Source: a virus
Taxonomy: Duplodnaviria; Caudoviricetes
Virus record (IMG/VR): IMGVR_UViG_3300020045_004900
Span: 1-30,178 of that record
DNA: 30,178 nucleotides
Reading direction: 5' to 3' (one strand)
The translations under genes and the position numbers were made by a program. Below are positions 2,712 through 21,840 of this stretch, piece after piece. The first letter of the stretch is position 1. Each line of letters begins with the position of its first letter. Below the pieces are notes generated by a model. The model made no database searches. It saw only the letters and a list, made by a program, of their open reading frames with translations, and was not told the DNA's origin.

Positions 2712-3827
2712 ATGAAAATTCAAGAAGTTGCTGTAGATAAGCTAATACCTTATGCAAAAAACAGCAGAACGCATAGCCCTGAACAGGTGGCTCAAATTGC
2801 CGCAAGCATTAAAGAATTTGGCTTTCGCAACCCAATCCTTGTTGACGGGGTAGGCATTATTGCTGGGCATGGCAGATTAATGGCTGCTCAAAAGTTAGGT
2901 TTAGACCAAGTACCCACTATTGATTGCTCTGATATGACTGAAAGCCAAAAGAAGGCTTACATCATTGCTGATAATCGTTTGGCATTAAACGCAGGGTGGG
3001 ATGTTGCAATGCTAAATATTGAATTGCAAGAACTTGAAGATGAAGGCTTTGACATATCAATTACAGGCTTTGATACAACAGAATTAGACGCATTGTTAAA
3101 TCCAACTGTAGAAACAGAGGGTTTAACCGATGAAGATGCTGTGCCTGATGTGCCAGCAGAGCCAAAAACTAAGGTTGGTGACATATATATCCTTGGAAAT
3201 CATAGGCTTATGTGCGGTGACAGCACAATGTTGCATGATGTTGAAAAGCTAATGGTTGGTACATATCCTGATTTGATCCATACAGACCCACCATACGGCA
3301 TGAACGCTGTAAGTAAATCATCGGTATTAAAGGCAAACTATGGCACAGACATTATGGGTGACGATAACCCTGATGTGGCTAAAGACGCATTTAACCTAAT
3401 TTATGGCTTATATCCTGATGCCAAACAAATATGGTGGGGTGCAAACTATTACTGTTCCGTATTGCCTGACAGCGAATGTTGGCTTGTTTGGGATAAAAAC
3501 AATGGGCAATCAGACCAAACCGATTGTGAGTTGGCATGGGCTAACTTTAGAAGCGTTGTGCGTCAATTTACCCAAGCATCAGAAAAGACCAATAGAGTAC
3601 ACCCAACACAAAAGCCTGTTTCTTTGATGGAATGGATTATTAAACGATTTAATTTATCTTCCAAGACCATTGCTGACTTCTTTGGAGGTTCGGGATCAAC
3701 CCTTATTGCGGCTGAAAAGAATGGATTGCAAGCGTTTATTATGGAATTTGACCCAAAATTCTGTGATGTAATCGTTCAGCGTTGGGAAGAATTTACTGGC
3801 AAAAAAGCTGTTTTATCGGAGTTATAA
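2712..3827 (+). CDS. ParB/Srx N-terminal domain fused to a beta-class N6-adenine/N4-cytosine DNA methyltransferase
   Basis: N-terminal LIPYAKNSRTH...IIAGHGRL...IADNRLA. C-terminal HRLMCGDS, TDPPYG (motif IV), HPTQKP, DFFGGSGSTL (motif I). Confidence 0.93.
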   Translation: MKIQEVAVDKLIPYAKNSRTHSPEQVAQIAASIKEFGFRNPILVDGVGIIAGHGRLMAAQKLGLDQVPTIDCSDMTESQKKAYIIADNRLALNAGWDVAMLNIELQELEDEGFDISITGFDTTELDALLNPTVETEGLTDEDAVPDVPAEPKTKVGDIYILGNHRLMCGDSTMLHDVEKLMVGTYPDLIHTDPPYGMNAVSKSSVLKANYGTDIMGDDNPDVAKDAFNLIYGLYPDAKQIWWGANYYCSVLPDSECWLVWDKNNGQSDQTDCELAWANFRSVVRQFTQASEKTNRVHPTQKPVSLMEWIIKRFNLSSKTIADFFGGSGSTLIAAEKNGLQAFIMEFDPKFCDVIVQRWEEFTGKKAVLSEL

Positions 3828-3829
3828 AA

Positions 3830-4195
3830 ATGGCAGAAAAAGGCAGACCTCCACACAAACCCACAAAAGAGAGCCAAGAACAGGTTAAACGCCTGTCAGC
3901 GTTAGGTTGCCCCCATGAGGACATTGCCACACGCCTAAAGATTAGTGCTGATACGCTGGTCAAGTATTACAAAGATGAACTTGACGAAGGGCGTATTGAT
4001 GCCAATGCCGCTATTGCTGGTACTTTGTTTAGCCAGGCCAAAAAAGGTAATACTGCGGCCGCAATTTTTTGGTTAAAAACAAGAGCTGGATGGCGGGAGG
4101 TGCAGAGAGTTGAGCACGGAGTTGAGGACACATTGCGGGCATTGTTGAGAGACATTGCTGACAAAAATACGGGGCTTCCGCATGATAACCCCTGA
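3830..4195 (+). CDS. terS: Terminase small subunit
   Basis: GRPPHKPT start, HTH region, AAIFWLKTRAGW motif; directly before TerL. Start moved to ATG 3830. Confidence 0.8.
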   Translation: MAEKGRPPHKPTKESQEQVKRLSALGCPHEDIATRLKISADTLVKYYKDELDEGRIDANAAIAGTLFSQAKKGNTAAAIFWLKTRAGWREVQRVEHGVEDTLRALLRDIADKNTGLPHDNP

Positions 4196-19405: not shown

Positions 19406-20119
19406 ATGAAAATCTACCAGCATCATCCTGTTACGAAAGAGCTCATTGGTCACAGAACGGCCCATGTCGATCCATTATCATCCAAAGAGGCTGGAGAGCC
19501 CGTCTACCTAGTGCCCGCACACTCAACAACGATATCGCCGCCAGATATAGCGCTCAAAGAAGCCGCTATTTTTAACATCAACACACAGTCATGGGATGTG
19601 GTGGCAGATTATCGCAATGACACATGGTACAACACAAACACAAAACTCCCTTTTGAGATTAAAGATCTTGGTCAGCCTCCATCATGGTTGACGCCAATCC
19701 AACCCCAAGCATATGACGAATGGGTTGGTGGTGCCTGGATGCACGACCCTGGTTTGGCCCTGAAGAGCGTGAAGAAAAATAAAACCGACCAACTAGCAAT
19801 TATAGCAGACAACAAAATTGCATCTGAATTTACCAGTGCGGCGCTAGGCGATAGCTTTATTTATCGCAACGCGATGGCAGACCAGATAAATCTAATCGGC
19901 GTCGTAATGGCAGGGATTGATGTGGTGTTGGCGTGTCGAAATAGTGGAGGTATTTGGGCGTTACGGCCACATACTGCAAAGCAGGCTCAGCAGGTGCTGC
20001 TTGACTGCGTCGCTCGCAGCCAAAGTATAGAAATTATCAAACGGGCGCTACAGGATGTAATTGATGCAACTGATGATGTGGAGGATGCGCTTGACATAGA
20101 GATAAAAATCGACGTTTGA
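19406..20119 (+). CDS. Tail fibre assembly protein (Tfa-like N-terminus, DUF4376-like C-terminus)
   Basis: LVPAHSTTISPP...WDVVADYR...EIKDLG..P, then FTSAALG...DQINL...HTAKQ. GGAGGT RBS. Confidence 0.8.
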   Translation: MKIYQHHPVTKELIGHRTAHVDPLSSKEAGEPVYLVPAHSTTISPPDIALKEAAIFNINTQSWDVVADYRNDTWYNTNTKLPFEIKDLGQPPSWLTPIQPQAYDEWVGGAWMHDPGLALKSVKKNKTDQLAIIADNKIASEFTSAALGDSFIYRNAMADQINLIGVVMAGIDVVLACRNSGGIWALRPHTAKQAQQVLLDCVARSQSIEIIKRALQDVIDATDDVEDALDIEIKIDV

Positions 20120-20148: not shown

Positions 20149-20382
20149 TCAGCACGCGCAAGCATTGGCAGGGCACCGGCAGTCGTAGCACCAGCCTGGC
20201 GGCGTGCCGGCTTTGATCAAAAACAACTCCCAGACCGCAAGGTCTATCTCAATATCTCCAGCCTCGGCCATCTGCCAGATACGCGCCTTGCGATGTACCA
20301 GTGCAGCGGCCTGAGCTTGCGTTAACCCAGCATCGCGCCGGGCCTGCCTGATCTGCTGCGGGGCGGGGGCTACTGCACCCAT
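20149..20382 (-). CDS. Small XRE/HTH regulator, Aca-like (resembles Aca10 as recalled)
   Basis: PAPQQIRQARRDAGLTQAQAAALVH...WQ..EAGD......WELFLIK. Last gene of the operon; start moved to ATG 20382. Confidence 0.8.
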   Translation of the reverse strand: MGAVAPAPQQIRQARRDAGLTQAQAAALVHRKARIWQMAEAGDIEIDLAVWELFLIKAGTPPGWCYDCRCPANACAC

Positions 20383-20873
20383 TGCCCAGCCCACTCTGTA
20401 TAATCCGCACACTCTCCCAGATTTTTAAATCCGGCCAGCTTTTTACCGTCTGACCAAAAATGCCGGGTTGCCAGGGCCAGAGTAAACAACATAGACTGAT
20501 CACCGCGCAGTGACTCCAGCCGCCCCACGAACGTATCGGGCAGCGCGATATCCCATTTTTCCAGCTCGCCGCCATAGTTGTTTCCGGAGGAGTCAATCAG
20601 GCTAAACAGCATGGAGTCCAGAGCGCTGGTGACGCTCACAGAGTCCGGCGTTTTAAACTCCGTCATCTGAGCGCCGCCGTTGAGTATGTCGCAACAGAAA
20701 AGCAGCTCGTTTGCCGTCAGGTTTAGCGGGCGCGTTGGCATGCACTGCTGGATGCACAGGTTTACGGCTGATGACAACGTTAAATTAATGTCGTCGCCGT
20801 GACTGCCCGCGATTATTGCTAGCAGCTCCAGCGAGCTGTCGGCCAGGTGGATTGATAGTTTTTTAGATGTCAT
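20370..20873 (-). CDS. Hypothetical protein (167 aa) with a ribbon-helix-helix-like N-terminus
   Basis: GAGGA RBS before ATG 20873. KKLSIHL strand-helix-helix pattern. Confidence 0.7.
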   Translation of the reverse strand: MTSKKLSIHLADSSLELLAIIAGSHGDDINLTLSSAVNLCIQQCMPTRPLNLTANELLFCCDILNGGAQMTEFKTPDSVSVTSALDSMLFSLIDSSGNNYGGELEKWDIALPDTFVGRLESLRGDQSMLFTLALATRHFWSDGKKLAGFKNLGECADYTEWAGQWVQ

Positions 20874-20898
20874 AAATCCTCGCTTATTAGTTATGTTG

Positions 20899-21114
20899 TT
20901 AAAAATCAGCAGCCCAGGTATGCAGAGATTGCAAATTTGCCAGCTGCCAATCTGATACCCGCTCGCTGCGGCCATCTCGCCAGACTATGCGGTTAAACCG
21001 TTCCGCAACCTCGATCAGCCGGAAGTCAGCGCCCTGTTTTTGTGCGTCCAGTTCAGTTGGATTGTAGGTGCCCATCGGCTGAGCGCTCTGGGTTTTTATT
21101 AGCCTAATGTTCAT
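20899..21114 (-). CDS. Orphan 71-aa protein (candidate anti-defence)
   Basis: ORF track. GGGG RBS; overlaps the upstream small gene. Confidence 0.7.
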   Translation of the reverse strand: MNIRLIKTQSAQPMGTYNPTELDAQKQGADFRLIEVAERFNRIVWRDGRSERVSDWQLANLQSLHTWAADF

Positions 21115-21274
21115 TTTTTAACCCCGACGCGTGAATGATTTTGATGTCGTGCTGGGATACTCGGATATACCTCATTTGACTGCGCCGGTAGTACCTGCCG
21201 TTTTTGTATGCGCAGTTAACGATCTTGCCGGCGAATATCGCTTTAAATTCTGTGCCCGCAAAGTTGGGGTTCAT
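21104..21274 (-). CDS. Orphan basic 56-aa protein (MNPNFAGTEFKAIFAGKIVNCAYKNGRYYRRSQMRYIRV...)
   Basis: Translated by hand. GAGGA RBS; fills the operon gap. Confidence 0.7.
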   Translation of the reverse strand: MNPNFAGTEFKAIFAGKIVNCAYKNGRYYRRSQMRYIRVSQHDIKIIHASGLKNEH

Positions 21275-21329
21275 TTTTTAATCCTCACTGGTTTGTTTGG
21301 GCGTCCTTGCCCGTGGTGGTTATTCGTCG

Positions 21330-21734
21330 TTATTCGCCGACATATAACGGCGAAATTAGTCTTTCATACTCAGCTTTTGCTGCACTCCACGCTTTTTCTT
21401 GCAGAGCGTCTAGTACAGACGCGTCGTAATCACAAAACCTCTTAAGTTTTGCTGATTCGTCCGCATCATAGCCGTACTTTGACGCTGTCGTAATATCGTA
21501 ACCTGAATAAGCTTTAATGCGGTTTGTGCGCTCTTCCGGCTGATAAGCAACTGTAAACGACTCTGTTTCCCCGTTTTGATTTGTCACCCGGACTTCAAAC
21601 TGATAAGTCCAGTCGCCGAGCCCAAACTCTCCTTCTTCGCCGCTGCAACCGCCAAGGGCGGTCAGGGAACGAACGTTCCCGTACCACTGTGCGTCGAACT
21701 CCTCTTCACTGACAATTAAAAATTTGATATTCAT
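21330..21734 (-). CDS. Orphan acidic 134-aa protein (candidate anti-CRISPR/anti-defence)
   Basis: GAGGAG RBS; about 24 D/E versus 13 K/R; first gene after the strong promoter. Confidence 0.8.
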   Translation of the reverse strand: MNIKFLIVSEEEFDAQWYGNVRSLTALGGCSGEEGEFGLGDWTYQFEVRVTNQNGETESFTVAYQPEERTNRIKAYSGYDITTASKYGYDADESAKLKRFCDYDASVLDALQEKAWSAAKAEYERLISPLYVGE

Positions 21735-21812
21735 CTTTGATTCTCCTCGCGGCCTCGTTTCCGGGCGCTTTTGGGTTTGGGGATATAGAGCGTTTATTGA
21801 CTCTATGCATGT

Positions 21813-21840
21813 AGTATACGCAATAATTGCGCAATTGCAA
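21813..21840 (-). promoter_or_regulatory. sigma70 promoter with palindromic operator in the spacer
   Basis: Minus strand TTGCAA-16 bp-TATACT. The spacer holds CGCAAT-a-ATTGCG (21819-21831) and AATTGCGCAATT (21825-21836). Confidence 0.75.

Follow-up and report, generated by a model that had tools for sequence, protein, structure and literature searches.

We found that the five leftward genes between 20149 and 21840 of a tailed-phage contig, the last of which encodes an Aca10-family HTH, probably make up a modular cassette that operates as a self-repressing anti-defence operon. The contig was analysed at its full length of 30,178 bp and this whole stretch is called the window here. The cassette offers four candidate anti-defence proteins behind a recognisable Aca10 switch. 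It also presents what appears to be a natural, selected variant for studying how Aca10 reads its operator centre, with Ile44 and ATTAT in place of Arg44 and C-A-W-T-G. This bears on whether co-infecting elements avoid each other's repressors.

Contig Setting and Cassette Layout

Family scans showed that the whole 30,178-bp contig belongs to a tailed phage with an SU10-type portal, a GP7 capsid and a tail collar, and that its leftward operon contains RecT, YqaJ, an HTH and a replication gene. On one side of the cassette are the rightward tail-fibre genes, ending at 20119, and on the other the leftward RecT/YqaJ early operon. These scans confirm the position between tail genes and early operon that the initial annotation had given, and the five co-directional ORFs of 134, 56, 71, 167 and 77 aa were indeed found at the claimed place on the minus strand. 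The features are as follows.

21813..21840, minus strand: sigma70-type promoter TTGCAA-N16-TATACT (motif scan and likeness to the P. citronellolis aca10 promoter)
21816..21834, no strand assigned: predicted operator, an inverted repeat between -35 and -10 (palindrome and register comparison)
21735..21812, minus strand: leader with a 7-bp hairpin and a second hairpin ahead of the RBS (RNA fold)
21330..21734, minus strand: 134-aa acidic cargo protein, pI 4.45 (ORF, homologs)
21104..21274, minus strand: 56-aa basic cargo ORF, pI 10.1 (RBS, intact copy in a related contig)
20899..21114, minus strand: 71-aa cargo protein (homolog clusters)
20370..20873, minus strand: 167-aa protein, pI 4.59, with its ATG behind GAGGA (RHH-like N-terminus and helical domain)
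20149..20382, minus strand: 77-aa Aca10-family HTH (7XI5 match)

Reading the operon from the sequence, the HTH is the last gene of a small-gene operon behind a sigma70-type promoter, and it overlaps the stop of the 167-aa gene. A purine-rich RBS precedes the four upstream genes, for which the initial annotation had claimed one; the HTH gene has no clear one. Because the minus strand shows no terminator-like site from the upstream operon to the cassette promoter, read-through from that operon is possible. Elsewhere in the window, positions 2712-3827 encode a ParB-like domain joined to an N6/N4 DNA methylase; this fusion precedes the packaging genes.

The Terminal HTH

Judged by its sequence matches, the terminal HTH is an Aca10 homolog. 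Its best PDB match is 7XI5 (E 8e-13, residues 1-61), which is Aca10 according to the accessible text of PMC9410881, followed by a next match at E 0.08 and by HigA2 at E 0.96. The Aca10-like assignment is thus right at the family level, and the clustering with HigA/MqsA-type antitoxins that would have spoken against it was not seen (HigA2 at E 0.96, MqsA at 16.4 bits versus a cut-off of 61.8). What had been overlooked are the exchange of Arg44 for Ile and the changed operator centre. The window HTH keeps Q22, R34 and Q37 of Aca10, while R44 is replaced by Ile. Arg44 is reported in the same accessible text (PMC9410881) as the most critical DNA-binding residue of Aca10, and the R44Y variant lost binding. 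Because this residue is critical in Aca10 and is Ile here, the window HTH may bind poorly. Across 36 Aca10-like loci, position 44 is Arg in 30, another residue in 4 and affected by insertions in 2; since four of the 36 other Aca10-like proteins also do without Arg there, R44 is not strictly family-defining.

The HTH core is covered by three related contigs from two public runs, with identities of under or about 90%. Among the holders of the sequence that were listed, none was RNA. Silent changes account for 13/17, 10/15 and 6/7 of the changed HTH codons in these contigs, counts which rest on the listed differences (23/28, 22/29 and 8/15, with the gapped stretch excluded). Residues 32-33, where the recognition helix begins, are among those that differ in amino acid, and codon 44 shows no change among the listed differences. 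Because the changes are mostly silent and codon 44 is unchanged among the differences listed, we regard Ile44 as a maintained state and not as a sequencing error; the codon pattern indicates that the HTH with Ile44 is under purifying selection.

The C-terminus of the HTH (window 20149-20199) forms a 16-residue tail with five cysteines, which is absent from all aligned homologs. A supposed Gluconobacter counterpart of this Cys-rich tail was rejected, as it is not a shared tail. Also discarded was the VC1465 Xer activation factor (NF040522), matched at 23.6 bits versus a cut-off of 70 and at positions 1-45 only of the 111-position model.

Promoter, Operator, and Leader

The near-consensus promoter of the initial annotation, TTGCAA-16-TATACT, is present at 21840..21813 and scores 9/12 against the sigma70 consensus. 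Its hexamer match alone is, however, not above chance, such sites occurring at chance frequency (6 found versus 7.8 expected in 5.5 kb). According to the available part of PMC9410881, the P. citronellolis aca10 promoter is TTGCAA-N16-TATTCT with a 10-1-10 repeat across the spacer. By hand count the window promoter is identical to that published sequence at 19/28 bases, including 11/12 in the hexamers, and the window palindrome is centred on the same base as the published repeat. It is the 11/12 common hexamer bases together with the palindrome in the same register that make the promoter credible.

The predicted operator consists of a perfect 6-1-6 core, CGCAAT-T-ATTGCG, with 7/9 pairs in the 9-1-9 Aca10 register, and occurs in one copy in the contig. 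Hence the proposed operator-containing promoter held up: an inverted repeat lies in the register of the published Aca10 operator (IR2). For comparison we used 36 fetched loci with an Aca10-like gene, some of them near-duplicates (L012 and L040 are one contig). A promoter and palindrome layout like that of the window was found upstream of 11/36 loci, which were chosen by eye from the scan for a clear promoter-embedded palindrome; the other 25/36 dropped out as duplicates, for want of a clear site or because the upstream DNA was too short. The operator centre of these 11 loci is CA(A/T)TG in ten and CGTTG in one, and all 11 encode Arg44. The window centre, ATTAT, is unlike all 11 of these sites. 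When a matrix was built from the 11 other loci, the window site came second of 60,298 window positions, the first one lying inside a coding region.

Further loci were read individually. Three with Arg44 (L043-L045) contain CAATG one base off the register used. By hand reading, the locus with Ser44 (L004) has an A/T operator centre and that with Val44 (L032) a weak GTTAT site, and the same locus scan gave no operator site in L018 and L048. The apparent covariation of residue 44 with the operator centre is suggestive only, resting on few cases with kinship uncorrected. We consider it rather likely that the variant HTH still represses the cassette promoter, with Ile44 and the A/T-rich centre being a matched change of specificity.

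A related contig of run X4 covers the promoter; among the changes listed, the core has none and the outer arm one. When viral contigs were scanned for another promoter bearing the variant operator, one match came up, which we attribute to chance because no HTH or 167-aa-family gene lies nearby. The leader at 21735..21812 folds with -16.5 kcal/mol (a value without shuffle control) and is kept in relatives carrying a different first gene. The 12 bp at window positions 21826-21837, AATTGCGCAATT, form a perfect palindrome that overlaps both the main repeat and the spacer at its -35 end, and further short palindromes, GATTTAAATC and TTCGCGAA, are found upstream of -35. From their sequences, these palindromes could provide a second binding site.

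The 167-aa Protein and Its Family

The 167-aa protein has 18 close homologs, and an exhaustive search returned 16 clusters at E 0.001 or better. The merged family profile, A5, matches CopG at E 0.0055 over positions 2-43, and we therefore describe the start of the protein as RHH-like. The homolog of L012 matches RHH_7 at E 0.0023, and an RHH Pfam match, a weak one, was obtained for 1/25 family members. The structural model (pLDDT 81) is nearly all helical, the RHH strand not being formed in the monomer; Foldseek of this model against PDB and BFVD gave no match at E 0.001, and no relatives were found in GTDB genomes or plasmids. Binding of DNA by the 167-aa protein is an assumption that we slightly favour. 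The gene had been listed as an orphan, and its RHH-type start had been overlooked; from its sequence, the protein may be a second regulator rather than plain cargo. The label 'orphan' fails for three of the four upstream ORFs, which have homologs and mostly form small families.

The family profiles were run over 2,875 ORFs of the fetched loci. Family members were located upstream of Aca10-like genes in 3/35 HTH-fetched loci, namely L040 (the L012 contig), L049 and L020. In L012, an unrelated phage contig, a homolog with 41% identity immediately precedes a canonical Aca10 gene; the operator there is canonical too, and the cargo is different. One family member (P0043) is fused to a C-terminal Aca10-like HTH, and three others (P0029, P0041 and P0045) are N-terminal HTH fusions with weak likeness to KorA/TrfB or other HTH models. 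Indeed, the window subfamily travels with HTH repressors.

The distal family members frequently come last or late in small cassettes, and on sequence grounds they look like RHH-type Aca proteins. Two phage cassettes (L049:2550-3888 and L055:2400-3399) differ in cargo and end in genes for 78% identical RHH-family proteins, and their promoters share TATTAC-N4-GTAATA around -10; in L055 the family gene is present without any HTH. In L051:2649-3450, on a Xanthomonas fragariae plasmid (NZ_LT853883.1), an AcrIF9-like gene (7bb5, E 0.0028) is followed by an RHH-family gene beside mobC. The L051 promoter has ACC-TT-GGT repeats, and CACCTTGGTG is common to the L051 and L052 promoters. Neither family motif (TATTAC-N4-GTAATA or CACCTTGGTG) occurs in the window promoter. 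The gene content of L051 makes it likely an acr operon with an undescribed RHH regulator. The check for homologues beside aca or acr genes came out positive for the 167-aa family, which adjoins Aca10-like genes and has a distal member behind an acrIF9-like gene. In the literature outside subscription papers, as far as accessible, no description was found of the RHH family beside aca10; supplementary cluster tables could list it.

Several other loci deserve a record. In L049 the Aca10-like gene after the RHH-family gene looks disrupted at its start. In the Ser44 locus (L004:1800-4190) a single Aca10-like gene is preceded by two promoters whose palindromes resemble each other, and the cargo includes a small HD-domain hydrolase related to RelA/SpoT. 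An LPD29 polyvalent-protein domain is found in an Aca10-like operon at L036:2986-3723. A by-eye impression that a cargo gene of L033 is AcrIF9-like was not confirmed on checking.

Probable Relation to AcrIE10

As far as the accessible text of PMC13530269 describes it, AcrIE10 combines an RHH with five helices; it binds Cas7 and also acts, via the RHH, as a repressor of its own promoter. The available parts of PMC11317147 and of bioRxiv 10.1101/2025.05.07.652737 describe it from Enterobacterales elements. A wide fold search with the 167-aa model placed AcrIE10 (8ji9_D) first of 48,161 chains; because of its Z of 3.9 and rmsd of 9.8 (107 aligned), we treat this fold match alone as noise. Profile comparisons were more informative. 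HHalign scored the window family against the distal subfamily A6 at 98.4% over 118 columns, and A6 against AcrIE10 at 91.4% over 102 columns, with 0.1% for the reversed control. Compared directly, the window subfamily and AcrIE10 gave 0.8-4.5%, which is not significant (reversed control 0.9%). For AcrIE10 we used WP_004152758.1 (116 aa), which contains the stretch printed for this protein. The distal profile A6 lists AcrIE10 at E 0.06 among 177,635 sequences, and the merged profile A5 did not list it at E 10 against the PDB. Because the direct comparison is not significant, the link is transitive and likely, not proven. Taking these profiles together, we consider membership of the 167-aa protein in the AcrIE10 superfamily, whose plan is an RHH dimer with a helical domain, to be likely. 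That it also inhibits a Cascade subunit as AcrIE10 does is conceivable, if unlikely.

The family member of L020 has 2,404 plasmid matches, 2,307 of them in Klebsiella and mostly at ~36% identity. This locus (L020:2890-3300 and 3554-4186, from a Methylococcus MAG) encodes an AcrIE10-like protein (36% to Klebsiella AcrIE10, E 1e-7), and the gene sits two genes upstream of an Aca10-like HTH. By its sequence L020 is a candidate AcrIE10-aca10 operon outside Enterobacterales. AcrIE10, known from Enterobacterales plasmids, may have distant relatives in phage and plasmid cassettes. Such relatives could serve as bait for anti-defence operons, and they could form a series tracing how a repressor gains or loses Cas7 binding.

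The Other Upstream Genes

The 134-aa protein belongs to a small family with 10 homologs at 53-77%. Its model has a pLDDT of 66 and a best fold Z of 4.8; AcrIF10, which came up at rank 10 (Z 4.1, rmsd 4.6, 83 aligned), was rejected as a common arrangement. Neither the 134-aa nor the 167-aa protein, nor the close profiles of either, found a match in PDB sequence searches. Scans of the four upstream ORFs against Pfam, PHROGs and NCBIfam returned nothing significant (YPYG reached 13.8 bits versus a cut-off of 30), and the ESM Atlas provided leads under 0.9 only. In L011 (= L013) the 134-aa homolog is followed by an 81-aa gene that is HTH-like by eye and has no Pfam match. In L015 a fused form of the 134-aa protein precedes a gene with an RHH-like-looking start, which is ended by the contig edge. 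No regulator is visible beside the 134-aa homologs of L014, L016 and L017. At L017:786-2412 a gene of the 134-aa family is broken and borders on opposite-strand genes that are ThiF/E1- and JAB-like by eye; ThiF/E1 and JAB are CBASS-type ancillary genes.

For the 71-aa protein we found three homolog clusters at 59-92%, one of them from Cupriavidus sp. UYMU48A, and no relatives in viral contigs or GenBank phages. In relatives of the gene, 6/8 listed changes fall at third codon positions, as read by hand. The 56-aa ORF is intact without gaps in one related contig and is absent from the protein collection searched; it is the least supported gene of the cassette.

Cargo is exchanged between acr loci, and the relatives of the window show the same. 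In contigs of runs X1 and X4, position 21271 is joined to 20867, 21269 to 21108 and 21723 to 21311, each join being read from a single contig with sides of 34-49 bases. Several of these contigs diverge at 21738, at the first start codon, among the matches listed. Related contigs of the two runs skip or replace the 134-aa, the 56-aa or the 56- and 71-aa genes. Since these contigs join and diverge around the cargo genes, we conclude that relatives exchange cargo and keep the leader and the last two genes.

The upstream ORFs had been put forward as candidate new Acr or other anti-defence proteins. As stated then, none is a named Acr, and the connection to AcrIE10 is transitive; no Acr is recognisable among them by sequence. 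We infer that the acidic 134-aa and 167-aa proteins are the best candidate anti-CRISPRs. We regard the presence of one or more anti-CRISPRs among the four upstream proteins as a real possibility, though a slightly doubtful one.

Proposed Mechanism and Alternatives

On entry of the DNA, the promoter would fire and give a burst of cargo proteins, which would act early. Next, a dimer of the Aca10 variant would occupy the palindrome in the -35/-10 spacer and shut the promoter off. These steps of firing, acting and occluding are modelled on Aca10 as far as described in the accessible text of PMC9410881 and PMC9410906. A bolder and rather unlikely version would make AcrIE10 one branch of a wide, so far undescribed RHH-plus-helical superfamily that serves phages and plasmids as repressor, as anti-CRISPR or in both roles. 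The 167-aa branch would be a new Cascade inhibitor whose repressor duty has passed to a partner HTH, which would account for the pairing with Aca10 and for the HTH fusions. That partner would be an orthogonal Aca10 in which residue 44 has changed in step with the operator centre, so that resident Aca10 proteins would no longer cross-repress it.

The same Aca10 switch could also autoregulate cargo that serves host takeover, superinfection exclusion or lysogen fitness. Pfam, PHROGs and NCBIfam identify no cargo protein as a known Acr, Pfam named only the HD hydrolase and the LPD29 protein among 30 proteins from Aca10-like and RHH-family loci, and the accessible text of PMC9410906 states that aca-like genes need not accompany known acrs. 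Blanks from Pfam and NCBIfam say little, however, because both also missed the AcrIF9-like protein of L051. With the transitive link of the 167-aa protein to AcrIE10 and the acrIF9-like neighbour of a distal family member pointing to anti-defence, we hold a role other than anti-defence to be improbable and retain the anti-defence operon.

A different division of labour would leave repression to the RHH protein, the Ile44 HTH having lost or moved its target and the palindrome having drifted to the RHH dimer. Such an arrangement would fit the critical role of R44 in Aca10, the distal members that are last genes with promoter palindromes of their own, L055 without any HTH, and AcrIE10, which represses its own promoter through the RHH domain (PMC13530269, accessible text). 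The window palindrome, though, keeps the Aca10 register and the outer CGC...GCGTA and is unlike the RHH-family motifs; in L012 the closest RHH subfamily accompanies a canonical Aca10 and a canonical operator; and the HTH appears to be under purifying selection with Ile44. Repression by the RHH protein in place of the HTH is therefore quite improbable, and we keep the Aca10 variant as the likely repressor. Lastly, a type II toxin-antitoxin pair, with a HigA/MqsA-like antitoxin after its toxin, is barely credible: gene order, weak HTH matches to MqsA (16.4 bits, cut-off 61.8) and HigA2 (E 0.96) and the structural similarity of Aca10 to HigA2 (PMC9410906, accessible text) would suit it, but the Aca10 match is twelve orders of magnitude better, the 167-aa protein is nearly all helical with an RHH-like start and not of the RelE/HigB fold, and its family occurs without any HTH in L055.

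Comparison with Known Systems

The closest named system is the acrIC7-acrIC6-aca10 operon of P. citronellolis (Aca10, 7XI5), as far as it is described in the available text of PMC9410881. Both operons end in an Aca10-family HTH with small cargo genes upstream, and both have a TTGCAA-N16-TAT(A/T)CT promoter with a palindrome in the same register between -35 and -10. The window protein differs from P. citronellolis Aca10 by R44 to I, Q38 to M and a recognition-helix start of HRKAR instead of HSSLR. Its operator has the centre ATTAT in place of CATTG and an imperfect outer arm. Furthermore, the window has the Cys-rich tail, unrelated cargo and an RHH-type gene directly upstream of the HTH.

With AcrIE10 of K. 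pneumoniae plasmids (8JI9, 9M71; PMC11317147 and PMC13530269, accessible parts) the 167-aa protein has in common an RHH-like start, a putatively related helical domain and the place near the end of a small-gene operon. At 167 aa versus 116 aa, the window protein is larger in its middle and has additional sequence at the C-terminus, and in contrast to AcrIE10 its family is co-encoded with HTH repressors, to which some homologs are fused. Finally, Aca14 of Pasteurella multocida (PMC13551039, available text) is likewise RHH-type and part of a putative anti-defence operon. It is set apart by its description: Aca14 has ~60 aa, as taken from a cloned fragment, and a TGTATATG-type repeat at -10, whereas the window protein has a further ~120-aa domain and stands behind a promoter without a TGTATATG-type repeat.
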